Positions 1 through 53,501 of a stretch of DNA of 64,000 nucleotides are shown in pieces. The stretch comes from Spirochaetia bacterium. GTDB lineage: Bacteria; Spirochaetota; Spirochaetia; WTKD01; G963693115. Made by a program: the position numbers and the translations under genes. The notes below the pieces were generated by a model that worked only from the letters and a program-made list of their open reading frames with translations, had not been told where the DNA came from and searched no databases. Positions within the stretch are counted from its first letter, which is position 1, and each line of letters starts with the position of its first letter. The stretch is taken from contig CBDDCA010000004.1 of assembly GCA_965226055.1 (NCBI GenBank), positions 64,001 to 128,000 on the forward strand, written 5' to 3'.

Positions 1-2
1 GA

Positions 3-6000: not shown

Positions 6001-6581
6001 ATTGGAATACAAGTGAAGTTATAGTTATGGATTATCTGTTTTTTCAATTATTAGTGTTTAATCAGGATATATCGGAATGGGATGTAAGTAATGTCGTTAG
6101 TATGGACTCTATATTTAGAGGTGCTGTGAAATTTAATCAGGATATATCGGAATGGGATGTAAGTAAAGTTACTACTATGGAGTATATGTTTTATGGTGCT
6201 AAAAAGTTTAATCAGGATATATCGCAATGGAATGTAGGTAAAGTTGCTAATATGGATGCTATGTTTGCTGCAGCTTCAGCATTTAATCAGGATATATCAT
6301 CTTGGAAAGTGAGTAATGTTGAGAATATGGACACTATGTTTACTGCAGCTTCAGCATTTAATCAGGATATATCATCTTGGAAAGTGAAGGAAATTGTAGA
6401 CATCGGACAAATGTTTTGGATGGCAGCGAAATTTGATCAAGATTTATCAAGCTGGAATGTATGTACATCGCAAACTTTTAAGAGCTTGAAGGTGTTTAAG
6501 GATACTCCTATGGAGAGTAAAGACGCTCAATACCCAACAGCATTGGATAAAAATACCGATAAAAGATGTTTAGGGTTTTAG
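3..6581 (+). CDS. Giant surface protein/adhesin: FN3-like domains, ~8 tandem ~140-aa repeats, Ig-like domain, C-terminal DUF285/BspA-like 25-aa repeats (5' truncated by window)
   Basis: Frame is open from position 3 (PYKNGRYYTAVEKEG...), so the track's GTG at 84 is not the true start. FN3-type motifs (VSWQAP...ITGLEAATKYKVKV; VQWNAP...LKAGVNYEVVVQAVN) and FNQDISxWxVxxVxxMxxMF repeats at the C-terminus. Confidence 0.85.
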   Translation, partial: PYKNGRYYTAVEKEGTTTDKQTEAVTNVGVVAGQTRVIVSWQAPQVGDYAGVKITVMQGITVVKTETIRSSSVRNAEITGLEAATKYKVKVVSLDSADNEGAAAEKEVTTLTNADTEAPDAVGSITSRVVLSGGKKALRIEWGAPNTTLAKNQDIKEYLVSVAEKEAPNTEVLPSTAVKYPATRFYKEIASLESGKTYEVKILSKDYAGNESEKTAEVTVPAALAAPSKDGVEGITLDKSGAIRAKVAFKTGPGSSIYYRVRMNEGATVVAEKSITGSTKEVYFGIADGLEVASTEGTAKEYGFFLIEIKGGQVSPATDIASTKLKVWDSVSTAPPMPSGATLKEAQSFKGIYEFSIGTFGASYKTPAGTELSQSQVEYRVYIAEGDHSTLDEIQAESGVRSRVVQGSNSATKHSITFAGEDKKTYTVGVAAINTLNSTKVASGTAGTIKKLTMEGVQAVPPAQSLVNDILAVSKSLTKEGTIKIEVTELTAFTNAIDASGNPITSNAGLVYTVYGLQKDTNPANAQEVVSNGRKVAIGSASGGKYTQDGVDKLGLTSETPKVQIAIKGKAQYHFVVEVAVKTDTTKKVYGAVESVTTGSQAKAPLQIAINPLLTVEETNPIPTGTIDLELTELTDFSSAQAKDDTGTAITSNAGLVYTVYGLQKDTNPTDRQEVITNGRKVAIGNARGGKYTVSGLSKLGLTTDAGGQIDIVERKQYHFVVEVAIKTDVAKKVVGTIKTVVLSSKAVAPAQSLVNDILVVDTSTTVGAVKVDLTVLTQFTNAKDDVGVDITSNAGLIYTVYGLQKTGTAPSIQDIVNNNKKVALGAVSGGKYTINALTTLGASPSVETIQGNRDYYFVAEVAVKTDTTKKVYSTVETVKTASKAVAPQQSSVNDILAVSKSTTVGEVKLEVTVLTSFTGLKADTGAAINDNTGLNYTVYGLQKDTTPTKNEVLAGRKVAIGTVSAGKYTVNSLDKLGLTTDSSAQVGILGNKQYHFVVEVAVATDTTKKVVGNIESVTTDSEAVAPSAGALSGNFSMEQSSSTGAVKLTLRRLTSFTGLKADTGAAINDNTGLSYTVYGLQKDTNPANAQEVVSNGRKVAIGSASGANTAGVYTVEALDKLGLTSDSAAQVSLVVGKQYHFVAEVAVATDKTKKVLSTIESITVSPAVPPEQSLVNNILSLGQSSTVEKLKLELTQLTQFTNAKDSTGQTITDNSNLVYTVYGLQKDTNPANVQEIVSNGRKIAIGTVSGGKYTVEALDKLGLTSDSAAQIDLDGGKKYHFVAEVAIARAPGKRVYSTVQRITVSQATPLNQSVIADNLILTADSVGGIIVEVTLATAFTDAKKFNGTSVTANSDLEYKVYLLKDTGSTPTAAEVRQGTKISVLVDLVEGKSLYSASKNFFVVELNTKYHFVLEVEIKSDTTKTVYSNVKNITSANNVSRAEAPHKALLANKLAVSQSSPIGAIKLVLTQLSDFEYGSTFDRVYTRVDSGKRINSNEHLEYKIFGIQQDTVPTAKEVIDKGSEIALPALSGSTVKGGRYTLNALSTVGGSSIKGKQYYFVFQIAVKSDLTAKVVSDVESILVDTLVPTEVNAITFTSISGGANGTATVQWNAPTLGNNYKTKTGTALQASQVSYKVYHAEKGATARTVAQIKAADNSPMTIGANVKTAGLTSLKAGVNYEVVVQAVNSTDTTKMSEGKRAEFKTAQGAAPGTPTVALEANGNTIEVDVTAPSFRGTKTDGTGLTEDEINYTLYYYASTSTLTAAQVKTQAGTASDPKVGGVKNDVTSKAIYVLDNLNKGQKYFITVEAVNSIVNNRSAPTSAESVTTATFTIELQNSNSTYTVGTAITPITITKDPSNATFSCTIDALTKETGLQFSVRDGITGTPNKSNEHDPFIREYKYTLVCTGTGLHAGQQRRSITIQTELQAVQGKAANYYRPTTKNTLRDIIDAEVKAQNKQDPNLNMIDTSAITDMNNLFSDVGGYNYQSLRKNAFNGDLSNWNTSEVIVMDYLFFQLLVFNQDISEWDVSNVVSMDSIFRGAVKFNQDISEWDVSKVTTMEYMFYGAKKFNQDISQWNVGKVANMDAMFAAASAFNQDISSWKVSNVENMDTMFTAASAFNQDISSWKVKEIVDIGQMFWMAAKFDQDLSSWNVCTSQTFKSLKVFKDTPMESKDAQYPTALDKNTDKRCLGF
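1377..4760 (+). repeat. About eight tandem ~420-nt (~140-aa) intragenic repeats
   Basis: Recurrent YTVYGLQKDT...GRKVAIG...YHFVVEVAV.TD.TKKV blocks; first six well conserved, last two degenerate. Confidence 0.85.
5975..6460 (+). repeat. 75-nt tandem repeats encoding DUF285-type 25-aa units
   Basis: tttaatcaggatatatc recurs every 75 nt (~6057, 6132, 6207, 6282, 6357), with degenerate flanking copies. Confidence 0.9.
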
Positions 6582-6607
6582 GGGGATAATCATCCTATAT
6601 AGGAGAC

Positions 6608-6645
6608 AAAAAAGGAATACAAGATGTTCTTGTATTCCTTTTTTT
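6608..6645 (+). terminator. Intrinsic terminator after the giant surface protein
   Basis: aaaaaaggaatacaaga-tgt-tcttgtattcctttttt perfect inverted repeat with T tract. Confidence 0.85.
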
Positions 6646-6712
6646 CTATAATTGAAAGTAATGTCTCATATTGTACCACTAATTAGAGTACTTATAGTAA
6701 AATAATAAAAGT

Positions 6713-7423
6713 ATGTTTTTTATGGTAGCATATCCAATACTTATTCTCTTATTTTTACATGCAAAAGGAACTGTATGTTTTCATAAAATGATACGTATAT
6801 TTTACATAAGTACAATATTTGTATTGCCATTAAGTCCTTTTGTGCTTATTCTTATTCGTTATATGTATAGAAATATAGATTATTTACTGCTCTTTGAAAA
6901 TATTCCTTTTATTCTTATCCATATTGCTGTATTACCTATAGCTCTTGTCCTTATTTTATTTTTTCTGCTTCGTACATTTGTATGGTGGAAATCACAGGAT
7001 ATAATTATTGTGATTATTTTTGTAGAATTGATGATAAATATATCAAATATCGTTATAGGATATTCTTTTTTTAGTTTTGCAGATGTGCTTATTATTCCAC
7101 TAGTAAAAATGGCAAGTATACAGCTATTTATATGTTTTATGCTTTTACAAAACATTACTCTTCATACTGGTAAGATAGCAGATAATACAGCTGCCTCTGT
7201 TCAGTCTAAAGATTCTAATGATGCACTTCTTCTTACTCTATGTAAGAGTACCACCATTGTATGTTTCATAGCTTCGTTTGTAAATTCGGTAGTAGTGATA
7301 TATTTTAGCAATCTTTCATTTTATTTTGCTGCATATGCTTATTCGTTGTTTTCTGTAATAGCTGGTTGGGGTGGCTTAGCGTTATGTTATTATGCAAAAG
7401 GTAAGCTATATAACAATGTATAA
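6713..7423 (+). CDS. Hypothetical multi-pass membrane protein
   Basis: 236-aa ORF with ~6-7 hydrophobic segments; overlaps the start of the next gene. Confidence 0.6.
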   Translation: MFFMVAYPILILLFLHAKGTVCFHKMIRIFYISTIFVLPLSPFVLILIRYMYRNIDYLLLFENIPFILIHIAVLPIALVLILFFLLRTFVWWKSQDIIIVIIFVELMINISNIVIGYSFFSFADVLIIPLVKMASIQLFICFMLLQNITLHTGKIADNTAASVQSKDSNDALLLTLCKSTTIVCFIASFVNSVVVIYFSNLSFYFAAYAYSLFSVIAGWGGLALCYYAKGKLYNNV

Positions 7424-8471
7424 ACTTTCTCTCTTCTTTCTATTGTGTATTTTGGTAATATTGTCATGCTCAGAGAACGCTCCAGAACAGAAAGCACAAG
7501 CAGATACACAAGAAAGCACAAGTACTCAAGATACAGAAGAGCAAAGTACCATATCAAGTGATGATGTTCTTGTAAATGAACAAGATACTAATGCTAGTCC
7601 TTTCAAAAAGAGAATAGCTCATAGTATGGATGTAGCACTTGTAAGCGATCCTTTTTTTCCTGCTATCTTTAATACACTTAATTTTAATAATTTTGAGCTT
7701 TTTTATTATAATGCAATGCGCTTAGGGATGAATGCTCAACTATTTACTTTGCTTGATACTGCATATGATACCACTGCTTTACAAGATACATTTTTAGCAA
7801 GTTATACGCCTCTGAATAATAGAGATATAGGTAATATACTGTATGCAAAAGATATAATTATATCTCCTTTATTGTCTCAGTTTAATCCTGAGTTTGTAAG
7901 CATGCTTCGCAACTATAGAAAAGCTGTGCAAAGAAGTACTCCTCTTGTGTTTTCTATAAAACCAAGAAATAATAGAGAAACAGATCTACAAGTTGATAAT
8001 GCATATGCGTTGCATGCTATGGCAAAAGATATAGCAACCATGTTTATTGATAATGATACATTAGAACGATTAGTTATTTTAGCTGATCTTAAAAATCCAA
8101 TACAGGTATCTGAGAATATTCGTATAGTGTTACAGCATTTATATCAAATTGCCCCTACCATTTCGACTGAGATATTTTGGAAAGCACGGCATTTAGGAGA
8201 AGAACAACAAACTATACAAGATGCTTTTAACCTAAACAGTAGTTCGGTAGTGTTTTTACTTTTTGTGGGGAGTCATCTTGATGTGGTATTACAATATATG
8301 TTTGAGAACAAAAGTCAATGGATAAATAAGGTATTTATAGTGCAAACATGGAAATCAACATTACATTTTTTTGGAAAAGAAGGGATAGTAGTAGCAAGTG
8401 TGGATAACGGATTAGATTCTTTTTTTAGAAAAAAAACATACGCTTATTCTCTCTTAAGGCAATACAAGTAG
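7416..8471 (+). CDS. Hypothetical lipoprotein
   Basis: ATG at 7416 gives MYKLSLFFLLCILVILSC (signal plus lipobox-like Cys) followed by an S/T/E/Q-rich linker. Confidence 0.65.
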   Translation: MYKLSLFFLLCILVILSCSENAPEQKAQADTQESTSTQDTEEQSTISSDDVLVNEQDTNASPFKKRIAHSMDVALVSDPFFPAIFNTLNFNNFELFYYNAMRLGMNAQLFTLLDTAYDTTALQDTFLASYTPLNNRDIGNILYAKDIIISPLLSQFNPEFVSMLRNYRKAVQRSTPLVFSIKPRNNRETDLQVDNAYALHAMAKDIATMFIDNDTLERLVILADLKNPIQVSENIRIVLQHLYQIAPTISTEIFWKARHLGEEQQTIQDAFNLNSSSVVFLLFVGSHLDVVLQYMFENKSQWINKVFIVQTWKSTLHFFGKEGIVVASVDNGLDSFFRKKTYAYSLLRQYK

Positions 8472-8564
8472 TAGTGAAAGTATACGAGAAAGCATTTCTT
8501 TTTGCACTTAGTTTTGAATTGCTATAGAAATTTCAAACTTGAATTTCAAAAAATTTCTGTGAGC

Positions 8565-8594
8565 TTGACATATTTTTAACAATTATTGTATACT
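8565..8594 (+). promoter_or_regulatory. Sigma70-type promoter for the tRNA-secE-nusG cluster
   Basis: TTGACA (8565-8570), 18-bp spacer, TATACT (8589-8594). Confidence 0.65.
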
Positions 8595-8627
8595 ATTACT
8601 AGTATAGTGGCAATTTATATATGAATT

Positions 8628-8700
8628 GCCCTTGTAGCTCAGCTGGTAGAGCACATCCATGGTAAGGATGGGGTCATCGGTTCAAGTCCGATCGAGGGCT
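8628..8700 (+). tRNA. tRNA-Thr(GGT)
   Basis: Cloverleaf: acceptor GCCCTTG/CGAGGGC, anticodon arm CATCC-AT GGT AA-GGATG, T-loop TTCAAGT; CCA not encoded. Confidence 0.97.
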
Positions 8701-8702
8701 TT

Positions 8703-8775
8703 AGGTCAGTAGCTCCAATGGTAGAGCGACGGTCTCCAAAACCGTATGTTGTAGGTTCGAATCCTACCTGACCTG
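8703..8775 (+). tRNA. tRNA-Trp(CCA)
   Basis: Acceptor AGGTCAG/CTGACCT, anticodon arm ACGGT-CT CCA AA-ACCGT, T-loop TTCGAAT; directly upstream of secE. Confidence 0.97.
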
Positions 8776-8802
8776 AATAATAAAGTGATATAAGGTGTAA
8801 GT

Positions 8803-8988
8803 ATGAAAAAAATAAAAACATTTATTAAAGAGTGTATTAGTGAGTTAAAAAAAGCGAGTTGGCCAACAAAGGATGATGTTATTCTTTCTACACGCGTAGT
8901 AGTAATATCTGTAACAGTATTGGCGATTATTTTAGGTTTTGCAGATTATTTTTTATTCTCAAGCCTAAATTTTCTTTTTGGCTTATAA
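8803..8988 (+). CDS. secE: Preprotein translocase subunit SecE
   Basis: ELKKASWPT motif plus one TM helix; lies between tRNA-Trp and nusG. Confidence 0.95.
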   Translation: MKKIKTFIKECISELKKASWPTKDDVILSTRVVVISVTVLAIILGFADYFLFSSLNFLFGL

Positions 8989-9027
8989 TATAGTAATCTA
9001 TTAAATAATAAAATGGAACTGTAAATA

Positions 9028-9582
9028 ATGAGTAAAAAATGGTATGTAGCTCGAGCTGTTTCAGGGCAAGAAAATAAAGTAGTCAATCTTATTCAATCAA
9101 TGAAAGAAACGGGAGATTTTCCTGTTGAAGTCGGAGGTGTTCATATACCGGTAGAAATTATATCTATGTCACGGAAAGGAAAGCAGTATCAACAAAAAAG
9201 AAGGTTGATTCCAGGATATTTTCTTATGGAAATAGATTTTCCTGATGCTGGGTGGCATTCTATGGTTATGTATCTTAGAAATATAGATGGGTTTATTGGT
9301 TTTGCAAGTGTAACAGGAAAAGAAGATAAGCCGCAACCTATCACTGAAGAGGAAGCAAAAGGCTTGCTTGATTACGGCAAAGGAGCTTCAAAAACAACAT
9401 TAGCTGTGAAGCAGTTATATGCAAAGGGAGAAGTAATTAAAATAGTGAAGGGGGCATTTAGCTCTTTTAATGGAACAATAGTAGAAGTTGTGCCAGAATC
9501 AGAGCTGTTGCGAGTAGAAGTTGAAATATTTGGTCGTGTAACTCCCATAGAGTTAGAATACGATCAAGTAGAAAAAATATAA
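9028..9582 (+). CDS. nusG: Transcription termination/antitermination factor NusG
   Basis: KWYV..SGQE, PGY, KOW domain ending in VEIFGRVTPIELEYDQVEK. Confidence 0.97.
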   Translation: MSKKWYVARAVSGQENKVVNLIQSMKETGDFPVEVGGVHIPVEIISMSRKGKQYQQKRRLIPGYFLMEIDFPDAGWHSMVMYLRNIDGFIGFASVTGKEDKPQPITEEEAKGLLDYGKGASKTTLAVKQLYAKGEVIKIVKGAFSSFNGTIVEVVPESELLRVEVEIFGRVTPIELEYDQVEKI

Positions 9583-9621
9583 AATAAAACATGCTAATTT
9601 GCATGGGAGAGAGAAATAAAA

Positions 9622-9714
9622 ATGTGGGAGTTTGTATATAACTAAATGAAAGGCATACTGCTTTGCTTAAATGAGAGCTTTGCTGTTTAGTGAAAAACAA
9701 ACATTGTACCACAT
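9622..9714 (+). promoter_or_regulatory. Putative L1-binding autoregulatory leader of rplK-rplA
   Basis: ATGTGG(GAG)...(A)CCACAT closing helix next to the GGAGG SD, with nested helices GTTTGT/ACAAAC and ACTAAAT/GTTTAGT; resembles known rplK leaders. Confidence 0.55.
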
Positions 9715-9723
9715 GGAGGTAAT

Positions 9724-10152
9724 ATGGCTAAAGAAATATTTCGTCAAGTCAAGTTTCAGGTAGCTGCAGGAAAAGCAACTCCAGCACCACCAGTAGGAAC
9801 AGCACTTGGCCCTTTAGGAGTGGCAGCTCCTCAGTTTTGTACTCAATTTAATGAGCGAACAAAAAATATTGAACAAGGAATGAAAGTGCCTGTTGTAGTA
9901 ACGGTATATGAAGATCGTTCTTTTAGTTTTGTAGTAAAAACACCCCCTGCGGCGGTGTTGATAAAAAAGGAACTGGGACTCGAAAAAGGGTCAGCAGTAC
10001 CTCATACAACAAAAGTAGCAACTATCAATCAAGAGCAGTTACGTAAGATAGCTGATATAAAGCTCCCTGATCTCAGTGCTAACAGTGTTGAACAGGCAAT
10101 GAAAATTATTGCAGGAACCGCGCGTAGTATGGGCGTAAAGGTGGAAGGGTAG
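9724..10152 (+). CDS. rplK: 50S ribosomal protein L11
   Basis: [15 protein letters not shown]; IAGTARSMG. Confidence 0.98.
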
Positions 10153-10155
10153 CAT

Positions 10156-10836
10156 ATGTCAGCAAAAAAAGTGAGTAAAAGAAAAAAAAGCCTTAATGTA
10201 CTTGTTGATAAAAATAAGCTATATACAAGTAATGAAGCAGCAAAGTTAGTAAAAGAAACTGCTACTGCAAAATTTGATGAAAGCATTGAAATATCAATTA
10301 AGGTAAATATTAAAAAAGGGCAGAGTGTACGTGATACTATGGTATTGCCATATCAAGTAAGTAAAGAACAGAAAATTCTTGTGTTTGCACGTGGCGATAA
10401 AGCAAGCGAAGCAAGTGAAGCTGGGGCAAGTTATGTAGGAGATACTGATCTTATTCAGAAAATTCAGGGGGGATGGATGGATTTTGATGTAGTCATTGCT
10501 ACTCCTGATATGATGAAAGATGTAGGGAGGTTAGGTCCCATTCTTGGAAGAAGAGGGCTTATGCCAAACCCTAAAACAAAAACAGTTACCGTTGATGTTG
10601 CTCAGGCAGTAAAGGAGCTACAAAAAGGACGTCTTGAAATTCGTGCCGATAAAACAGGAGTAATACATCTTGTGGTAGGAAAAGCATCTATGGACATACA
10701 AAGCATTGCTGAGAATATTGAAGCTGTTATGAAAGAAGTAAAAACAAAAAAGCCTGCAGAAGCAAAAGGAGAGTTTATTATCTCTGTAGCTATAGCTTCA
10801 ACTATGGGGCCAGGAATAAAAATAGTATCAATATAG
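10156..10836 (+). CDS. rplA: 50S ribosomal protein L1
   Basis: KFDESIE; LGPILGRRGLMPNPK; STMGPG. Confidence 0.98.
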   Translation: MSAKKVSKRKKSLNVLVDKNKLYTSNEAAKLVKETATAKFDESIEISIKVNIKKGQSVRDTMVLPYQVSKEQKILVFARGDKASEASEAGASYVGDTDLIQKIQGGWMDFDVVIATPDMMKDVGRLGPILGRRGLMPNPKTKTVTVDVAQAVKELQKGRLEIRADKTGVIHLVVGKASMDIQSIAENIEAVMKEVKTKKPAEAKGEFIISVAIASTMGPGIKIVSI

Positions 10837-10894
10837 TATACAAATGAGTAGTATATTGGTATACATACCGTAAAAAAAGTATTTAGGAGGAAAA

Positions 10895-11419
10895 ATGAAG
10901 CCAGGAAGAATGCAAAGACAAGAGAAAGTAGAGAAAATAAAGCAGTATCTTGATAATTCAGATTCTTTTGTTATTAGTGATTACAGAGGACTTACTGTTG
11001 AACAGATAAGTGAAATACGCAGAGAACTTATGAAACATGAGGCAGAAATGCATGTTCATAAGAATAGATTTATAAAAATAGCCTTAAAAGACAAAGAGTA
11101 TCCCCAAGAAGTGATAGAGCAAATGACAGGGCCAAATGCTGTTGTGTATATACAAGGAGATATAAGTGCAGTACTTAAAACATTATTTGGATATGTCAAA
11201 AAAGAGTATCCTATTGAAGTACGTGGTTCATATGTAGATACTGGATTCTTAGATAAACAACAATCAGAAACATTATCAAAATTACCAAGCAAAGAGGTTA
11301 TGCTTGCTATGGTAATGGGGACCATGCAAGCTCCAGTGAGAAACTTGGCTTCAGGATTACAAGAAGTTATAGCGAGTTTTGCAAGAGCAGTACAAGCTGT
11401 AGCAGATTCAAAAAAGTAA
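10895..11419 (+). CDS. rplJ: 50S ribosomal protein L10
   Basis: DYRGLTVEQISEIRREL; KN motif; LSKLPSKE; synteny. Confidence 0.96.
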   Translation: MKPGRMQRQEKVEKIKQYLDNSDSFVISDYRGLTVEQISEIRRELMKHEAEMHVHKNRFIKIALKDKEYPQEVIEQMTGPNAVVYIQGDISAVLKTLFGYVKKEYPIEVRGSYVDTGFLDKQQSETLSKLPSKEVMLAMVMGTMQAPVRNLASGLQEVIASFARAVQAVADSKK

Positions 11420-44767: not shown

Positions 44768-46822
44768 TTATAATAATGGAGCAATAATAAGAGCAATAAT
44801 CGTTATCAATTTAATAAGAATATTGAGTGATGGTCCTGCTGTATCTTTGAGTGGATCGCCTACTGTGTCACCTACCACTGAGGCTTTATGTGTCTCAGAT
44901 CCTTTCCCATTTTCTTTACGCTCTTCTATCATTTTTTTTGCGTTATCCCATGCACCGCCACTGTTTGCCATAAAAATAGCAAGGGTAATGCCACTTACCG
45001 TTGCTCCTACGATGAGTCCTGAGAGCATTTCTACGCCTCCAAAAAAACCAATAATAACAGGAATAACGATAGTGCCTAATCCAGGGAGTATCATTTCTTT
45101 AATGGCAGACTTAGTAGAAATATGAATACAACGATTATAATCAGGGGTATCATTTCCTTGTAATATACCTGGTTTTTCCTTAAACTGTCTACGTACTTCG
45201 TTTATCATAGAAGCAGCTGCTTTGCTTACTGCATCAATAGTAAGAGCACTAAAGGTATACGGTATCACTGCACCAATCATGAGTCCAATAAGTACTGGTA
45301 TTGAGGTTAAATCAATACTGTCTATTCCTACCGATTCTTTGAACGAAGTAAACAAAATAAATGCAGTAAGTGCTGCACTTCCAATAGCAAAGCCTTTTCC
45401 TATGGCAGCGGTGGTGTTTCCTACTGAATCAAGAGAATCAGTGATTTCGCGTACTTCTGGAGGATAGTTACTCATAACGGCTAATCCTCCAGCATTGTCA
45501 GATATAGGACCGTACGCATCAACTGCTAACTGAATGCCTATAGTGACTAGCATCCCTAATGCTGCAATGGCAATACCAAAAAGACCAGCAAAGCTGTAAC
45601 TAATTCCTACTGTAGCTGCAATGACTAAAATAGGGAGTAAGCAAGAAAACATTCCTACTCCTAATCCTGATATTATGTTTGTAGCATATCCACTTTCAGA
45701 TTGCTCTACTATTTTTTTTACTGGCTTTTTCCCAAATCCAGTATAATATTCAGTAAGTAATCCTATAGTAATACCACTTGCTAGCCCTAATATGGTGGAA
45801 ATATATATAGTATTTACTGTGAGTATGTTGCTGGAACCTTCAAAATCTTTTAATAGAAAACTTAGTATAGGATAGAACGATATTATTACAATACCTGCAG
45901 CGACAAAAGTTCCTGTATTTAATGCTCGTTGTGCAGATTTTCCCGGTTTTGTGCGTACACATAAAATACCAACGATAGAAGCAACGATTCCAATTACCAC
46001 TAGTATCAATGGGATAAATAAAAGCTGCATACGATATGCTTCTTCTACAGGACTTGCAAGTGCTAATATCATAGAGCCAATAATTGAGCCAATAAATGAT
46101 TCAAATAGATCAGCTCCCATGCCAGCAACATCTCCTACATTATCACCAACATTATCTGCTATTGTGGCAGGGTTTCGAGGATCATCTTCAGGAATATTTT
46201 TTTCTACTTTTCCTACTAAATCAGCACCAACATCAGCCGCTTTTGTAAAAATGCCTCCTCCTACACGAGCAAACAAAGCGATAGCACTTGCTCCCAGAGA
46301 AAAACCTGTGATAATAGGTAAATAATGCTCTTGTATGTTTACTATGGTTACACTCATTACTTGTTGTAATATAAAGAGTAAAATGAAAAGACCGAGAGTA
46401 GAAAGTCCTACTACACTCATTCCCATGATACTTCCTCCTGCAAATGCAATACGTAATGCAGGATTTATGCCTTTTTTTGCAGCCTCAGTGGTACGAGAGT
46501 TTGCGGCAGTAGCAACTTTCATGCCTATGTAGCCAGCTGTCCCCGAAGCAAATGCCCCCAATAGAAATGCAAATGCTTGAAATTTATTTATGCCAGTATT
46601 GAAAAAATAAAGCATAATAGCCATAATAAGTACAAAAGGAATCAAAACTTTGTATTCTTGATGTAGAAATGTAATTGCTCCGTTTGAGATATACGAGCTA
46701 ATTTTTTGTAGCTCAGCAGTTCCTTTATTTTGCTTAAAAATCCAATTACTACGAATAATAGCATATAGCAAAGCAATGGCACTTCCTATAAAAAGTGTCC
46801 AAGTGATAGTTGAAAAATTCAT
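44768..46822 (-). CDS. hppA: Membrane-bound pyrophosphatase, K+-dependent, likely Na+-translocating
   Basis: [19 protein letters not shown]; DNVGDNVGD; GNTTAA (Ala marks the K+-dependent type); [11 protein letters not shown]. Confidence 0.95.
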
Positions 46823-47037: not shown

Positions 47038-50000
47038 TTAGTACTGTAGTAATGTTCCGCCAAAAGTAAATCCTCCACCAAAAGCAACAATAAGTATTTT
47101 TTTTCCTTTAAGATTACCTGTATTTTCTAATTCTTTTAAGCAAATAGGAATAGTGTTAGAAGAACTGTTTCCATGTTTATCAATGTTAATATAAAATTTA
47201 TCTAAAGGTAATTGTAAGCGTTTCGCTATTACGTTTATTATTTTTTGGTTTGCTTGATGAGGAATAATAATATCTATGTCTTCAAAAGATGTATTGTATG
47301 TATCACATACTTTTCTTGCAATATCACTTAAATGTTTAATTGCTAACTTGTATACTTCAAGTCCATTCATAGAAATAGAGCCGTTTTCAGGAACCATTAA
47401 CAATTCTGCAGGAGCTCCTACTGTTTGTAAAATAGGGTTGAATATTTCTACTGAATGCTCTGTTTTCTCTGTACTGATAATAGAGGCAGATGCAGCATCA
47501 GAAAATACAGGTGCAGTCTGATAATCTGATAAATCTATACGCTTAGAAAGAATTTCTCCTGTAATAAGCAAAAATTTCTTGTTAGGATGCTTATACACAT
47601 ATTGATACACATTGCTTAATGCAAATATAAAACCTGAACATGCAGCAGAGATATCGTATGCAAATATGTCAGGGGCTGTTTCAAAATTTCTTTGTTTTGT
47701 TAATTCATACTGTACCATTGTAGCAAGCGATGGTGTTTGATACTCATGAGTTCCTGTTGCACAAATAATCCCATCAATATCCTGCAAACTCAGCTTAGCT
47801 TTATCAAGCGTTTTTTGTGCTACCTCTGTACACATTGATACTAAATTTTGTTCATCAGAAACCCAGTGTCTTTGTTGTATTCCTGTACTCCCAAATATTT
47901 TTTCCTCTGTCCATTCGGGAGATAATGTTACTATTTCTTTGTTGCTTACTATTCTATTTCCTAGTACAGTATGTATATGTGATCCATAGACATGTACTGT
48001 TGTAGTAGTAGGAGTATTTACATGTGTAGGAGAAGAAAATGTAAGTGTAGGGTTACTTCTGTCTTCACGAGTGACAACTTTGACTACTATATCATCTGTT
48101 TTTATTCGTGCAATGGCTGTTCCAATAGAAACAGAGTCTCCTTCTTGATATAATAGCTCTATAATTTCACCATTGACACTAGATTTTACATCTACTGTCG
48201 ATTTATCGGCTTCGGCTTCAACTAAAAGTTCTCCTTCTTTTATAAAGTCACCAACTTTTTTATTCCACTGAATAACTACAAATACCTCATCTGATGGGCT
48301 TGATCCTATTGCTTCAATTTCTACTATCCCTGTATTTTTATCAGTGTCCTCTTCGGGCCAATGTATGCTTCCTTCTAACATACGTACTGCTTCATTGAGT
48401 ATTGAACGATACGAGGGGAGAACTTCTAACTGATTAGAAAAATTACATGGAACATAGGTATCTGAGCGTGTTATGCGTGAATATGCATACATATCCTCTG
48501 CTTTTTCACTGATGCTTGCTATAAGCTCCGAACTTACTGATACGAGCTTTGAGTCTTCATGTGTTACGAGTAATTTTCTTGTTTTTTGTACAGACTGCAG
48601 TACAGTATTGACATCAATGGGCTTTACTGTCCTTAAGTCTATTACTTCAGCTTGCTTTCCATAATTACTGAGCGTTTCGGCAACTTGCATACAAAGAGGA
48701 ACTGTATTGCCAAAAGCAACAAGAGTGATATCCTCTCCTTGTTTGATGATACTTGCTTTTCCTGGAGCAATTACTAAGGAACGAGCTCCAGATTTACTAA
48801 TGGTCTTATGTTGTACATTGAGCAAATTTTTTGGATAAAAATATACAGTAGGACGCTTTGATATGAATGCAGCATTAAGCAACCCTGCAGCATCTTTTGC
48901 ATTTGATGGTATACATACATCTATACCAGGAACATGAGCAGCAAAAGATTCCATAGAGGAAGCATGAAATGGTCCTAATCCTGGTTTGTATCCTCCACAG
49001 GATGCCATAATAATAAGAGGTATTTCCCAATTTCCTCCACTTCGCCAATACATAGATCCAAGTTCAGAATAAATTTGATTAAACGCTAGAGGAAAGAAAT
49101 CAGCAAATTGTAAAAATGCTACTGGTCTTTGTCCTGCTAATGCTCTTCCTATTGAGGCTCCTACTATAAGAGATTCACTTAAAGGGCTGTTGACTACGCG
49201 TTCTGAAAAAGTAGTTGATAATCCTTTTGTTAAACCAAATACATCTCCTTTTGGGTCCTCAATATCTTGTCCATAGAGAAACACAGATGGATCTTTTTCA
49301 AGCCAATGCCATAATACTTCTCGTATTGATTCAAGCATAACGAGCGAACCTTCTTCGTACTTTTCATCAACTGTAGGAGTGATAGAAAGCTCTTTTATAG
49401 CAGTGAACACTGGTGCTGGCTCGTTTTCACGTTGTGCTTGTATGGCAAGAGGCTTTAATGTAGCATACATTTCTTGTTGCATTGTATTGCATTTTTCTTG
49501 TGCTTCTTGTACATCTATATCTTCTAGTTCCACTAACAGATTTACAATAGGATCTGAATGCTGCCATATTTGTTCAATATCATCTTTATTACGATATATT
49601 TGTTGATTATCAGCGTTTGTATGATTACTTAGTCTTTCAACAGAGAATACTACAATTTTAGGAATGGAATTGCTACGAATTGACTGAATTGCTTGTTGGA
49701 ATACTTGATATGCCTTATGAGGATATCTTCCATCAATACGAATAATTTCGCATCCCATAAATTCTGATATCTCTTTGTTTCCCACTTGATAGAATGTTTT
49801 GCCTGCTGTAGGAGTGGAAATAGCAAATTTATTGTCTTCAACCACTACTAATACAGGAAGAGAGTCGCGTATAGATAATGCTAAAGACTCCAGAAATTCA
49901 CCTTCAAATGTTGTTCCCTCACCAGTAAGATTTACTACAATGGAATCACTTCCTTTTTGTTTGAGTGTGGCAGCAACTCCTACTGCATGAAGAGCGCTAT

Positions 50001-50343
50001 TGCCAACAGGTCCAGAAATGCTAAGCACATTCAATTCTGGAGCGCTCATATGAGCATTCATCTGTCGACCATGTGAGTGAGAGGTATCTTTGTTAAATAA
50101 TGCTCGAAAGTAGTCAAGCGGAGTGAGTCCTCTTGCTAACAATAGGGCTTTATCTCTATAATGACAATGAAGCCAATCATCTTTTTGAAGAAGTGGTGCT
50201 AATACGGAAATTCCTTCATGTCCTGCCCCAGAAACATGAAAAAAAGCTTCTCCTCTTGCAGTATATTCTTGTTCAATTTGATCTATGGCTCGTGCCATGA
50301 TCATAAAATTTAAATTTTCTGTAATAATGGGATTATTTTTCAT
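47038..50343 (-). CDS. Fusion: 2-oxoacid dehydrogenase E1alpha + E1beta + lipoyl domain + FabH (KAS III)
   Basis: ThDP motif GEG..EGEFLE...EDNKFAIS; E1beta YGQDI, PLSES, QFADF; lipoyl EAEADKS (K714); FabH triad AAC902SGF, H1029QAN, GN1059SS and AFGGGF. Confidence 0.9.
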   Translation of the reverse strand: MKNNPIITENLNFMIMARAIDQIEQEYTARGEAFFHVSGAGHEGISVLAPLLQKDDWLHCHYRDKALLLARGLTPLDYFRALFNKDTSHSHGRQMNAHMSAPELNVLSISGPVGNSALHAVGVAATLKQKGSDSIVVNLTGEGTTFEGEFLESLALSIRDSLPVLVVVEDNKFAISTPTAGKTFYQVGNKEISEFMGCEIIRIDGRYPHKAYQVFQQAIQSIRSNSIPKIVVFSVERLSNHTNADNQQIYRNKDDIEQIWQHSDPIVNLLVELEDIDVQEAQEKCNTMQQEMYATLKPLAIQAQRENEPAPVFTAIKELSITPTVDEKYEEGSLVMLESIREVLWHWLEKDPSVFLYGQDIEDPKGDVFGLTKGLSTTFSERVVNSPLSESLIVGASIGRALAGQRPVAFLQFADFFPLAFNQIYSELGSMYWRSGGNWEIPLIIMASCGGYKPGLGPFHASSMESFAAHVPGIDVCIPSNAKDAAGLLNAAFISKRPTVYFYPKNLLNVQHKTISKSGARSLVIAPGKASIIKQGEDITLVAFGNTVPLCMQVAETLSNYGKQAEVIDLRTVKPIDVNTVLQSVQKTRKLLVTHEDSKLVSVSSELIASISEKAEDMYAYSRITRSDTYVPCNFSNQLEVLPSYRSILNEAVRMLEGSIHWPEEDTDKNTGIVEIEAIGSSPSDEVFVVIQWNKKVGDFIKEGELLVEAEADKSTVDVKSSVNGEIIELLYQEGDSVSIGTAIARIKTDDIVVKVVTREDRSNPTLTFSSPTHVNTPTTTTVHVYGSHIHTVLGNRIVSNKEIVTLSPEWTEEKIFGSTGIQQRHWVSDEQNLVSMCTEVAQKTLDKAKLSLQDIDGIICATGTHEYQTPSLATMVQYELTKQRNFETAPDIFAYDISAACSGFIFALSNVYQYVYKHPNKKFLLITGEILSKRIDLSDYQTAPVFSDAASASIISTEKTEHSVEIFNPILQTVGAPAELLMVPENGSISMNGLEVYKLAIKHLSDIARKVCDTYNTSFEDIDIIIPHQANQKIINVIAKRLQLPLDKFYINIDKHGNSSSNTIPICLKELENTGNLKGKKILIVAFGGGFTFGGTLLQY

Positions 50344-50500
50344 CTATATACTTATTTTTATTATTTCAAAAATAGCTCATATAGTCAATATAAGGGAGAT
50401 GCAGAGATTACACATATATACTATATTGTTATATAATTAAATTAGAAAGATTGATTTAATCTTATTAAATGTATGAGCTATAAATATATGGAGGAATACT

Positions 50501-50926: not shown

Positions 50927-52264
50927 ATGCAGAAAGAAATGCAAAGAAAAAAAGATCTTATCATGGTAGAACAAGAACTACTGTACAAGAAATTAGAAAA
51001 TGTAAATCTCAGAAAACTATTAAAGCAGAAAAAATATAAATATTTGAAAAAATTTATAAAGCCGTATCAGAAGGAAGGATCAAAGATAGTAAGAGCAAAA
51101 ATAGTCAAAAAGGGAGAAAAGAAAATATATGAGGCATATGAAAAAGAAAAATATTTATGTGATTTCTCATGCTGTGATTTTTTAGCAGAGGTAACATTTT
51201 GTAATTGTCTATTTAGCGAAGGAGCAAATTTCGAAGAAGCAATATTTAGCGAAAGAGCAACTTTTGAAACAATATTTAGTGGAAAAGCAAATTTTACGGA
51301 AGCAACATTTAGCAAAGAAGCATCTTTCATGAGAGCAACATTTAGTGAAGAAGTAAATTTTACGGAAGCAACATTTAGCGAAGGAGCAATTTTCGTGAGA
51401 GCAAAATTTAGTGGAGAAGCAAATTTTACGGAAGCAACATTTAGCAAAGAAGCATCTTTCATGAGAGCAAAATTTAGTGGAGAAGCAAATTTTAGAAAAG
51501 CAACATTTAGCGAACTAGTTCAGTTTAAAAATATTTTGTCGAAAGGAAATATGTATTTTGATGGGGCAAAATTTGAGAATAAGGTAAATTTTGAATATGC
51601 TATTTTTGAACAAAATATATGTGATTTGCCATCTAGAATAGAAGCAGAAGATGACAGTAAGGAAACATATCGGGCAATTAAGCATCAACTGTATAAACAA
51701 AATGACTATTTAGAAGCACATGATTATTATGTGAAAGAAATGGAGTCTTACCGAAAGAAGTTAGAAAATGATGAAGAAGAGAACAAACTACTAGATGAGT
51801 TTACTCTTAATGTACAGCGTGTTATGACTAATTATGGTCAAGATTGGTTTCGAGGCTTACGTTGGATTATTGAAATAAATTATATAACTACAATAATATT
51901 ATGGATATTATATGGTAATGAAATAAATCCTATATATAATTTAACTGTATTATACCATATTATTATCTTAGTGGGTATTATATGTTTGTTATTTGCTTTT
52001 TGGGAAGAATGTTTCAGTGGTTGTTCATGGATAATACTTATATTTTGTGTTTTAGTTCTGATATTTTATAGAGTATATCCTAATAATAAAGATTTTTTTC
52101 TACTTTTTCTCACTTTAATGAATCCTCTTGATACTATACGCGAAACACTCCCATGTTTCAGCAATGGCTTGTTTGATGTTATTGAGTTTATTATAAATAT
52201 AATAAACCTCTCACTGATATATCTTGTTATCTCGGCATTCCGCAGATTTTCTCGTAATAGGTAA
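50927..52264 (+). CDS. Pentapeptide-repeat protein with C-terminal TM domain
   Basis: FSxxAxFxxAx repeats, helical region (Y..EM), NYGQDW.R motif and ~4 TMs. Confidence 0.85.
   Translation: MQKEMQRKKDLIMVEQELLYKKLENVNLRKLLKQKKYKYLKKFIKPYQKEGSKIVRAKIVKKGEKKIYEAYEKEKYLCDFSCCDFLAEVTFCNCLFSEGANFEEAIFSERATFETIFSGKANFTEATFSKEASFMRATFSEEVNFTEATFSEGAIFVRAKFSGEANFTEATFSKEASFMRAKFSGEANFRKATFSELVQFKNILSKGNMYFDGAKFENKVNFEYAIFEQNICDLPSRIEAEDDSKETYRAIKHQLYKQNDYLEAHDYYVKEMESYRKKLENDEEENKLLDEFTLNVQRVMTNYGQDWFRGLRWIIEINYITTIILWILYGNEINPIYNLTVLYHIIILVGIICLLFAFWEECFSGCSWIILIFCVLVLIFYRVYPNNKDFFLLFLTLMNPLDTIRETLPCFSNGLFDVIEFIINIINLSLIYLVISAFRRFSRNR
51211..51530 (+). repeat. 33-nt tandem repeats (about nine units)
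   Basis: Units like tttagcgaaggagcaaattt...gcaaca; one unit is 30 nt; an exact ~53-nt block recurs at 51286 and 51418. Confidence 0.85.
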
Positions 52265-52286: not shown

Positions 52287-53501
52287 TGGAGTTTTACTAT
52301 TTCGTATGAACCCTTTTGATAAAATCAGTATACCGTAAAATTTCTATTATGCCAAGTGTGTAAAGTTCGTGTTGTAAGGAAAGTATCAACAATAAGAGGG
52401 CGCAGAGTAAGTACACAAGGATCCAGAGAGGGACTTTTTTCTTTGAGTAATACAGCAGGAGAGCCGTGTTTATAAGAGTTATAGCGTTGATGATTAAAGC
52501 TATATTGATACTCACTACTTAAGTGTAAAAAAGTACTGAGAGTAGGATTCTGCATTTTTGCATAGCATTCAGTTTCAATAAGTTTATGAGAAGCCTCGAC
52601 ATCAGAATTGTAAGTAGGAGAAGCATATGGGATAGTAGTATGGCGTGCCTCGTATGCCGCAAGAGAAGCAACAAAAGCAGACTGTTTTGTACTAAAAGCC
52701 CCTGAGATAAACTCAGAGCCATTATCAGTTTGAATAGTAATAGAGGAAGTATCAACGTGAAAAGAAGCAAGATGAGTAAGCAGATATTCAATAAACAAAG
52801 CGGTATGAGAAGAGCTTTTTTGAGTGGCAAAGCATATCCATAAAGCCCCCGTAGCGACATCACGTGCGGTGATTTGATACTTTGGGAGACAAAACTTGCG
52901 TAATGAGAAGTATAATTCGGGGATATCAGTAAGATATTTAATGTCTACTTGTATTTTGTGACAAAATTGAAGTAGTGTTTTCCATAGGCGTACTTCTTGG
53001 TTTCTTTGTGCTTTTTGCTTTTTACTTGTCTTATAATACCCCATCTTTCTTAGATACTTAATAATAGTTTTTATGGAATAAGGAATGGTATACTCTCGTT
53101 TTATATGAGAGGCAATACATCGTTGATGATAGTGCTGTAATGTTTCGCATATCTCTTTGAGTTTTAACTGATAGTAAAGTATCATAGTATCTGGATGCTC
53201 TACTGAAGCAGGACGTCTATCATAGAGCATAGCTTTAGGCTTCTCTTTGTATCTTTGCAACCACTTGCGTACGGTATTAGGAGATACATGAAAGATACGA
53301 GCAGTACTTTTGATACCGTGTTCTTTCGCAGAAAGTGCTATAGCTAAGCGTACCTTATGCAGTTCTTTTTGATTTCTTGTATTATAAAGTGTAGAGTATA
53401 TCATGTACTCACCCCCTTTTTTTTGTTTTTGTTTATTATTTCCATGATAGTATAATTACTATCATGGATTTTGGGGGTTCACACAAGATGGTAAAAGTAC
53501 A
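52287..53501 (-). mobile_element. IS481-family insertion sequence (~1215 bp)
   Basis: Imperfect 27-bp terminal IRs (52287-52313 and 53475-53501, 21/27 matching, TG...CA ends) flanked by direct repeat ATAAAAGCTATTTT (52273-52286 and 53502-53515). Confidence 0.85.
52325..53404 (-). CDS. DDE transposase (IS481-like, HTH + integrase core)
   Basis: HTH GIKSTARIFHVSPNTVRKWLQRY; QVDIKY; QTDNGSEF; DVEASH. Confidence 0.9.
   Translation of the reverse strand: MIYSTLYNTRNQKELHKVRLAIALSAKEHGIKSTARIFHVSPNTVRKWLQRYKEKPKAMLYDRRPASVEHPDTMILYYQLKLKEICETLQHYHQRCIASHIKREYTIPYSIKTIIKYLRKMGYYKTSKKQKAQRNQEVRLWKTLLQFCHKIQVDIKYLTDIPELYFSLRKFCLPKYQITARDVATGALWICFATQKSSSHTALFIEYLLTHLASFHVDTSSITIQTDNGSEFISGAFSTKQSAFVASLAAYEARHTTIPYASPTYNSDVEASHKLIETECYAKMQNPTLSTFLHLSSEYQYSFNHQRYNSYKHGSPAVLLKEKSPSLDPCVLTLRPLIVDTFLTTRTLHTWHNRNFTVY

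Follow-up and report, generated by a model that had tools for sequence, protein, structure and literature searches.

In Bacillus and Staphylococcus, branched primers for fatty-acid synthesis arise from a branched-chain 2-oxoacid dehydrogenase complex (BCKDH) consisting of a decarboxylating E1 component (E1alpha2beta2), an acyltransferase (E2) and a dihydrolipoamide dehydrogenase (E3), followed by a FabH which uses the branched acyl-coenzyme A (acyl-CoA) thus formed. Within such complexes a peripheral subunit-binding domain (PSBD) is the usual means by which E1 is attached to the E2 core. Here we describe a gene in which parts of both enzymes are joined: in a stretch of 64,000 nucleotides from a Spirochaetia bacterium (GenBank assembly GCA_965226055.1, contig CBDDCA010000004.1, positions 64,001 to 128,000; hereafter the window), a single uninterrupted open reading frame (ORF) on the minus strand (47038-50343, ATG start, 1101 codons plus stop) encodes E1alpha, E1beta, a lipoyl domain and a FabH as one chain. 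As predicted, the fusion would share with the Gram-positive route the thiamine diphosphate (ThDP)-dependent decarboxylation of a 2-oxoacid onto a lipoyl-lysine and the subsequent condensation with malonyl-acyl carrier protein (malonyl-ACP) by a 3-ketoacyl-ACP synthase III (KAS III) with a Cys-His-Asn triad, and its E1 part aligns with solved E1s of the alpha/beta type. It differs in being one chain without E2 core and without PSBD, and in possessing a FabH that lacks the contacts to the adenine of CoA, for which reason a free acyl-CoA intermediate is probably skipped. By analogy, its function appears closest to the Gram-positive BCKDH-plus-FabH route, condensed into a single polypeptide that probably dispenses with the CoA step. 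We suggest that the primer is handed from the acyl-lipoyl group straight to the cysteine of FabH, a reading to which we assign a probability of roughly 0.55; the wider proposal that fatty-acid synthesis is here started in a new way, with the lipoyl-lysine arm and not CoA carrying the primer from a ThDP decarboxylase to a ketosynthase cysteine, is considered an even bet.

FabY of Pseudomonas is known as an alternative fatty-acid initiator, and for the quinocarcin-type transketolase system a role of a lipoyl-type intermediate was reportedly put forward by Peng et al. in PNAS in 2012. Like the fusion is suggested to do, FabY and the malonyl-ACP decarboxylase MadA/MadB prime type II synthesis and thereby bypass the step of acetyl-CoA and FabH; they are, however, unrelated to the fusion in protein and chemistry, and neither starts from a 2-oxoacid or involves lipoate. 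MadA/MadB (YiiD) is such an alternative initiator (PMC8666670, PMC12093956), the actinobacterial OdhA joins E1o to the succinyltransferase domain of E2o and makes succinyl-CoA (PMC10415282), and a two-component transketolase/ACP system operates in quinocarcin and naphthyridinomycin formation (PMC13249901). OdhA provides a precedent for an E1 fused with the next enzyme of the relay, a ketosynthase not being involved, and the quinocarcin system resembles the fusion in that a ThDP enzyme of the E1/transketolase type gives an acyl (glycolyl) unit to a carrier protein and not to CoA, but differs in that the proteins are separate, the transfer to ACP proceeds without a ketosynthase, the C2 unit is derived from sugar and the context is secondary metabolism. 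No description or biochemistry of an E1-lipoyl-FabH protein was found in the literature searched, outside of which most subscription journals and supplements lay, and the sole paper therein that matched 'FabH' together with 'lipoyl domain' is unrelated to the fusion. The fusion thus combines known modules by a new junction and probably by a new hand-off.

The original prediction of one 1101-residue frame with E1alpha, E1beta, lipoyl and FabH parts was borne out by the ORF call, Pfam and NCBIfam. The Pfam domains follow each other in the order E1_dh (residues 13-310; 131.3 bits versus a cut-off of 22), Transket_pyr (338-509; 82.1 versus 27), Transketolase_C (528-639; 98.4 versus 25.9), Biotin_lipoyl (690-747; 52.4 versus 22.1), ACP_syn_III (896-969; 68.4 bits) and ACP_syn_III_C (1016-1101; 89.5 bits). 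With NCBIfam, residues 792-1100 matched PRK09352 (beta-ketoacyl-ACP synthase 3) with 264.8 versus a cut-off of 249, TIGR00747 remained for the FabH domain with 227.8 below its cut-off of 292.1, and all pyruvate dehydrogenase (PDH) E1 models scored far under theirs. Neither the E2 catalytic domain (2-oxoacid_dh, PF00198) nor a PSBD (E3_binding, PF02817) was matched by the 1101-residue protein in Pfam at E values up to 0.01. The AlphaFold2 model of the full-length chain has a mean predicted local distance difference test score (pLDDT) of 90.8 and a predicted template modelling score (pTM) of 0.70. The residue numbers given beforehand for the key positions (A712-D713-K714-S715, C902, H1029 and N1059) were found to be correct. 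Judged by domain matches, fold and triad, the protein is composed of a true E1 of the alpha/beta type, a true lipoyl domain and a KAS III, and it is not an E2.

The evidence that carries the proposed hand-off resides in the FabH domain. C902, H1029 and N1059 align with C112, H244 and N274 of E. coli FabH and are invariant in the alignment of 121 family sequences. In E. coli FabH-CoA structures, the adenine stacks between Trp32 and Arg151 and is hydrogen-bonded to Thr28, and the phosphopantetheine is held by Arg36, Asn209/210 and Asn246/247 (PMC4606726). With E. coli FabH as ruler, 141 fused domains (121 proteins from the database search and 20 from loci) were compared with 50 ordinary FabHs (48 from loci, that of E. 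coli and that of the window's genome), the latter commonly carrying the motifs DTSDEWI and D-R-x-T. Both residues of the stacking pair are present in 50/50 ordinary FabHs and in none of the 141 fused domains, where D113, E10, K9, S5, A2 and others take the position of W32 and P68, A22, F19, Y16, G5 and others that of R151; in the window protein, these are Lys815 and Tyr941. T28, present in 49/50 ordinary FabHs, is replaced by W in 127/141 fused domains, and N210 by P in 105/141. What was kept are the positions of C112, H244, N274 and N247, each in 140/141, and also G306. R249 is retained as R in 128 and K in 13 of the 141 (Lys1034 in the window protein), K257 as R in 123 and K in 17, meaning that 140/141 carry R or K there; both are presumably the ACP-docking residues of E. 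coli FabH. The fused FabH is therefore a KAS III by fold and chemistry, and it is not a standard FabH of the acyl-CoA type, as its acyl-CoA site does not conform to that of ordinary FabHs. Catalytic tunnel and malonyl-ACP side seem to have been kept and the nucleotide-binding mouth rebuilt, which is what would be expected if a protein-borne lipoyl arm replaces CoA. The fused FabH domains group together in a single clade, and the branch dividing it from ordinary FabH has a support of 1.0 and a length of 0.97; this single long and supported branch argues for a change that arose once and was subsequently maintained.

A second line of evidence comes from verrucomicrobial single-chain proteins of about 1036 residues (L054:3692-6802, L056:9959-13066 and L057:3207-6320), in which E1alpha, E1beta and a lipoyl domain are followed by an E2 core, an all-in-one architecture of which we know no description. 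They align with the fusion at 776 positions spanning E1alpha to the lipoyl domain, 31% of them identical, and have the same domain order up to this point; they differ in their last domain, which is a 2-oxoacid_dh acyltransferase (119.8 bits) and not a FabH, and in their linker, which is without the motif KPxTRExPGxPxI of the fusion. In structure, the fusion thus appears closest to this verrucomicrobial sister, and the claim that FabH replaces the E2 core held, as the sister has an E2 core at FabH's place. From the alignment, FabH and E2 core would be interchangeable last modules on one chassis, that is, alternative acceptors of the same arm. All three verrucomicrobial loci also have the same two ORFs, of about 416 and 366 residues, upstream of the E1-lipoyl-E2 gene.

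The E1 part shows the residues expected of an active enzyme. G141-E142-G143...D170-N171 aligns with the ThDP/Mg2+ motif GDG...NN of 1w85_A, whereby E142 is a Glu at a place where the motif and many relatives have Asp; Glu142 could likewise ligate Mg2+. G141, G143, N171, H241, H460 and E390 are invariant in the family alignment, and Glu390 is taken by us to be the ThDP-activating Glu. H241 aligns with H271alpha and H460 with H128beta of Geobacillus stearothermophilus E1p, two residues which catalyse the reductive acylation of lipoate (PMC2663715). By its conserved residues, the E1 part appears complete and built to load a lipoyl arm. As to the substrate class, pyruvate-type and branched-chain-type E1s were not separated by PDB or NCBIfam scores: PDH and BCKDH E1 structures score alike against the fusion (183 to 137 bits for the beta subunit, 92 to 48 bits for the alpha subunit).

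The fused lipoyl domain is the sole lipoyl domain to stand without an E2 of its own. Its residues 672-749 are all-beta in the AlphaFold2 model, Lys714 sits in a D-K-(A/S) hairpin, and E711, A712 and K714 around the predicted lipoylation site are invariant in 121/121 sequences. About ten residues only link E1beta to the lipoyl domain. On its other side follows a linker motif specific to the family, in which E760 is invariant and T758, G763, P765 and I767 are conserved to at least 90% in the 121 sequences; in the model it forms a strand (766-769) within a block of pLDDT 74-87, and it remains unaligned in the verrucomicrobial sister, where the alignment stops at residue 751. Between this motif and FabH, a short tether (772-780) is the sole segment that falls below pLDDT 50. 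From the model, the lipoyl arm would be held on short leashes near both catalytic bodies, pointing to a compact relay rather than to classical long-range shuttling. A complex prediction with two copies of the FabH part (753-1101) and the lipoyl domain (668-752), for which the 121-row family alignment served as input, scored 0.00 in two runs without controls and carries no weight on the question of binding. A strain variant from another study (X7) lacks three bases in frame (48002-48004, about residue 781), right beside the tether.

The suggested mechanism assumes that the fused E1alpha-E1beta, presumably as a dimer mimicking the alpha2beta2 tetramer, initially decarboxylates a 2-oxoacid with ThDP/Mg2+ and afterwards transfers the acyl group reductively to the lipoyl moiety that its own lipoyl domain carries on Lys714; this step is suggested because the E1 catalytic residues are fully conserved. 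Next, in what would be the new step, the S-acyl-dihydrolipoyl arm is proposed to take the place of pantetheine in the FabH tunnel and to acylate Cys902, whereby the remodelled tunnel mouth, which is the CoA nucleotide site in ordinary FabH, probably docks the lipoyl domain. The acyl-FabH would subsequently react with malonyl-ACP to 3-ketoacyl-ACP, which enters type II fatty-acid synthesis, as is suggested by the His/Asn pair and the ACP-docking residues having been kept. Finally, the dihydrolipoyl group would be re-oxidised in trans by the cellular dihydrolipoamide dehydrogenase (E3). The enzyme would act as an accessory initiator beside the ordinary acetyl-CoA-using FabH and not in place of it. 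That the gene constitutes a self-contained primer-making enzyme in this sense is somewhat favoured by the sequence. Branched-chain or other larger 2-oxoacids might be the likeliest substrates, which is the weakest part of the reading; the guess derives from the position of E. coli Phe87, which is T in 122 and S in 16 of the fused domains (F27, M10, T6, W3 and L2 among the ordinary ones), and, by comparison with E. coli and M. tuberculosis FabH, Thr/Ser at this position points to a roomier primer pocket accommodating branched or larger acyl groups. If the mechanism is true, one polypeptide together with E3 and malonyl-ACP turns a 2-oxoacid into 3-ketoacyl-ACP. This would be an entry into type II fatty-acid synthesis that is independent of CoA, with a ketosynthase primed by a lipoyl swinging arm, and the first ketosynthase for which a lipoylated protein domain is the natural acyl donor; it would also represent a natural swap of acceptor modules (FabH for the E2 core) on an E1-lipoyl chassis. 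Amino-acid and 2-oxoacid pools would then be linked to membrane lipid composition without release of acyl-CoA, which bears on branched- and odd-chain content, and enzyme engineers would have at hand a compact single-gene module with which fatty-acid or polyketide synthases could be supplied with unusual starter units made from cheap 2-oxoacids.

Which partners are available was derived from the genomes. The assembly to which the window belongs (6 contigs, 2.25 Mb, 89% complete) encodes an ordinary FabH of 328 residues (C6:918013-918999), homologues of FabD, FabG and AcpP (ACP at C5:438343-438576), an LplA-type ligase (PF21948, 148 bits) and a conventional E1alpha/E1beta/E2/E3 operon (C5:555731-560582; E3 at C5:555731-557134), the E2 of which has lipoyl, E3-binding and catalytic domains (PF00198 255 bits, PF02817 59 bits). 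The E1alpha of this operon reads as two overlapping ORFs of 156 and 197 residues (C5:559534-560582), for which a frameshift, an error in sequencing or pseudogene formation may be responsible; should the split be real, the canonical complex would be without a working E1alpha. Elsewhere (C6:296919-300282, locus L005), an 815-residue single-chain E1alphabeta adjoins a 269-residue E2 core without a match to a lipoyl or E3-binding domain, and this pair is without a lipoyl arm of its own. Each of the five other fusion-bearing spirochaete genomes encodes a separate FabH-sized ORF (335-374 residues), one or more complete E2s and an E3 that exceeds the curated cut-off, and five genomes of other phyla (loci L041, L062, L058, L049 and L039) encode a separate FabH-sized ORF each (324-366 residues).

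Several points weigh against a direct transfer from acyl-lipoyl to Cys902. Lipoylation of K714, acyl transfer to Cys902 and the product are all predictions. An ordinary FabH was found in 11/11 genomes checked, so that the fusion would be an additional initiator and never the sole FabH, and E2 plus E3 were found in 6/6; with E2 and a CoA-type FabH kept, a CoA-dependent route in trans would be possible. R36 is retained in 119/141 fused domains and N247 in all but one, and as both contact pantetheine or phosphate, the site might still accommodate the pantetheine portion of CoA. One of the 141 sequences deviates at the catalytic columns, and the 50 ordinary FabHs come from loci fetched by the pattern of the fusion family and thus are a non-random sample. 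Furthermore, W811 (Trp in 127/141) stands four residues before the W32 position, and the local phmmer alignment to 2ebd pairs it with the canonical Trp via a gap of four residues. The global alignment, which requires just a single additional residue from the conserved Asn to the TGI motif, agrees with the model helix H813-820, and because of this alignment and the helix limits K815 is preferred as the equivalent of W32; a Trp one turn before this position might still stack. The loss of R151 is unambiguous and independent of the alignment choice for W811. With regard to the substrate, some hosts are labelled Rhizobium, Neisseria(ceae) or Methylococcaceae, groups which to our knowledge are not known as producers of such fatty acids, so that a branched-chain substrate becomes less likely, and for the hosts Cysteiniphilum and Spirochaeta thermophila nothing usable on branched-chain fatty-acid profiles was found in the literature searched. 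Given these points, the fusion might just raise the local concentration of substrates, with a separate E2 core unloading the lipoyl domain in trans and FabH using the acyl-CoA so formed. This is in line with the largely kept pantetheine-side contacts R36 and N247 and with the E2 catalytic domain found in every fusion genome checked (two in the window's genome, at least one in 5/5 other spirochaete genomes), and the lipoyl-less 269-residue E2 core beside the 815-residue E1alphabeta could in principle use a foreign lipoyl domain. We nevertheless regard such CoA-dependent channelling as unlikely, for the adenine-stacking pair W32/R151 is lost in 141/141, the PSBD that would attach an E2 core is unmatched, a conserved E2 gene is missing from the vicinity in the 21 loci, and the sister architecture puts the E2 core in FabH's position instead of adding it to FabH. 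The lipoyl-less E2 core (C6:299473-300282) was also considered as the general missing partner and rejected, since nothing in G159 and G210, two of the five other genomes, clearly corresponds to it; these have just one E2 match each, in full-length frames of 466 and 498 residues. As concerns the original prediction, its anatomy and the replacement of E2 by FabH stood, and direct transfer from acyl-lipoyl to the FabH cysteine received support of an indirect kind, namely the loss of W32/R151, the retention of triad, Asn247 and Arg249, and the unmatched PSBD.

The relay may alternatively be the same and its output another, with FabH acting as an acyl:ACP transacylase or condensing with malonyl-CoA or a dedicated carrier toward a signal, a ketone, a resorcinol-type lipid or a polyketide starter. 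The structure matches of the FabH domain include KAS III relatives that serve other functions (PqsD, CorB and 3-oxopimeloyl-ACP synthase), the 1101-residue protein has weak NCBIfam matches to the StlD/DarB ketosynthases, and a patchy distribution (6/301 phylum genomes, scattered phyla) together with an ever-present ordinary FabH fits an accessory function. Such an output is doubted here, as the best matches are genuine FabHs (the top PDB match is 2ebd with an E value of 1e-53, and PRK09352 is over its cut-off), the ACP-docking residues are kept, and neither a biosynthetic cluster nor a dedicated carrier is conserved beside the gene in 21 loci; entry into fatty-acid synthesis is hence preferred. 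A mis-assembly, or a fused pseudogene without function, is by far the least probable explanation, and nothing was found in its favour. That the fusion is no assembly artefact was shown by the same six domains in relatives and by contigs of two other studies: from the runs of each, a single Logan contig spans the complete gene (X5, 12,758 nt with 20 differences; X7, 11,519 nt with 149 differences), the sole indel within the ORF across the Logan contigs being the in-frame deletion of 3 nt, and X1 is identical and may be the source sample. Among the 19 in-ORF strain differences scored, taken from 40 of 158 table rows, 15 are synonymous, pointing to purifying selection on the fusion gene. Against decay also stand the invariant catalytic residues and the model pLDDT. 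The shorter database entries which begin inside E1beta or the lipoyl domain resemble gene calls that were cut short. To the extent that sequences can show it, artefact and decay are refuted.

The distribution of the family was determined from several searches. Among 8000 scored candidates from 5.8 billion clustered proteins, 1622 matched at E values up to 0.001, and the domain-architecture check proposed beforehand gave the same six Pfam domains in 120/120 of the matches listed (1089-1189 residues, 44-97% identity). Of those listed relatives that bear a name, Spirochaetia (Spirochaeta thermophila, Alkalispirochaeta) make up the majority, joined by one Lentisphaeraceae and one 'Marinobacter halodurans' record. 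They are annotated just as 'beta-ketoacyl-ACP synthase 3' or '2-oxoisovalerate dehydrogenase E1 component', and current metabolic reconstructions would consequently misread the family. Of 301 genomes evenly drawn from the phylum, with two candidates scored per genome, six are listed with the full-length fusion in one frame (G000, G094, G030, G230, G159 and G210), 164 weaker matches lying outside this listing. A scan of one genome per prokaryotic species yielded 80 loci, 16 of them with the full-length fusion, and by record titles these belong to Spirochaetales/Spirochaetaceae, Sumerlaeota, Verrucomicrobia/Opitutaceae, Phycisphaerae, an Actinomycetota metagenome-assembled genome, Rhizobium sp., Devosia, Methylococcaceae, Neisseria/Neisseriaceae and Cysteiniphilum litorale. 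Among environmental spirochaetes the family is thus common, and its members in other phyla are scattered. With the linker and FabH part (352 residues) as query, proteins of 400-585 residues with lipoyl and FabH domains were matched as well; these were rejected as split forms, as the six that were read (P0122, P0132, P0133, P0135, P0136 and P0139) all start inside E1beta or the lipoyl domain and hence look like truncated gene calls. Two FabH-only proteins, P0123 (321 residues) and P0140 (311 residues), on contigs of 832 kb and 105 kb, carry the signature of the fused clade as judged by eye, in that a Trp precedes helix 2, the W32 position is not Trp and the R151 position is Pro; in these, the split may be natural and the lipoyl partner a separate protein.

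For the gene neighbourhood, the ORFs of 21 loci (the 16 fusion loci, four extended spirochaete loci and the window) were clustered, and no neighbour of the fusion gene was common to more than four of them. The one cluster with four loci was dismissed as a partner: it includes the window's 512-residue sugar-transporter ATPase and was read as generic ABC ATPase. The fusion gene travels alone, with E2, E3, ACP and fab genes not attached in the 21 loci, and the lack of a conserved neighbour implies that a dedicated partner is not encoded nearby. For the window itself, it had been stated in advance that neither an E2 nor an E3 gene adjoins the fusion, and the flanking genes agree with this, being those for an H+-pyrophosphatase, a 135-residue ORF and a pentapeptide-repeat protein (Table 1); the neighbours also include a WD40 protein. 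In G230 (locus L118), the fusion (8021-11368) is immediately preceded on its own strand by a second E1alphabeta gene (665 residues, 5658-7655) without lipoyl and FabH domains.

Table 1. Features of the fusion gene and its surroundings in the window
Feature	Position	Strand	Basis
H+-pyrophosphatase, flanking gene	44768-46822	-	Family match
Whole ORF, E1alpha-E1beta-lipoyl-FabH single chain	47038-50343	-	Pfam, NCBIfam, AlphaFold2 model
FabH (KAS III) domain, residues 785-1101	47041-47991	-	Pfam, NCBIfam, alignments
Asn1059 codon	47167-47169	-	FabH triad
His1029 codon	47257-47259	-	FabH triad
Cys902 codon	47638-47640	-	FabH triad
Disordered tether from linker motif to FabH, residues 772-780	48004-48030	-	Sole segment with pLDDT <50
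Family-specific linker motif, residues 755-769, consensus KPxTRExPGxPxI, partly structured	48037-48081	-	Alignment and model
Lipoyl domain, fold residues 672-749, Pfam match 690-747	48097-48330	-	Biotin_lipoyl 52 bits; beta-strands in model
Lys714 codon, predicted lipoylation site in E711-A712-D713-K714-S715	48202-48204	-	Family alignment
E1beta C-terminal domain, residues 528-639	48427-48762	-	Pfam Transketolase_C 98 bits
E1beta pyrimidine-binding part, residues 338-509, with E390 and His460	48817-49332	-	Pfam Transket_pyr, alignment to 1w85_B and 1um9_B
E1alpha part, residues 13-310, with ThDP/Mg motif G141-E142-G143...N171 and His241	49414-50307	-	Pfam E1_dh, alignment to 1w85_A
Promoter-like TTGACT-17-AATAAT, TG before it, 17 nt upstream of ATG	50360-50388	-	Consensus match only
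135-residue ORF, flanking			No family match
445-residue pentapeptide-repeat protein (PF13576, 84 bits), hydrophobic C-terminal half	50927-52264	+	Pfam
359-residue ORF, helix-turn-helix and weak integrase-core matches, probably insertion-sequence transposase	52325-53404	-	Pfam

The promoter-like site upstream of the fusion gene is no evidence on its own, as the scan gave 21 sites in the region versus 18.6 expected, and in the promoter and terminator scan around the fusion gene the number of sites was not above chance. Among the sequencing runs listed as containing the sequence, none was an RNA run. At the far end of the window, positions 1-4000 have a G+C content of 42.5% and an AT skew of 0.38, versus about 34% G+C elsewhere in the window.

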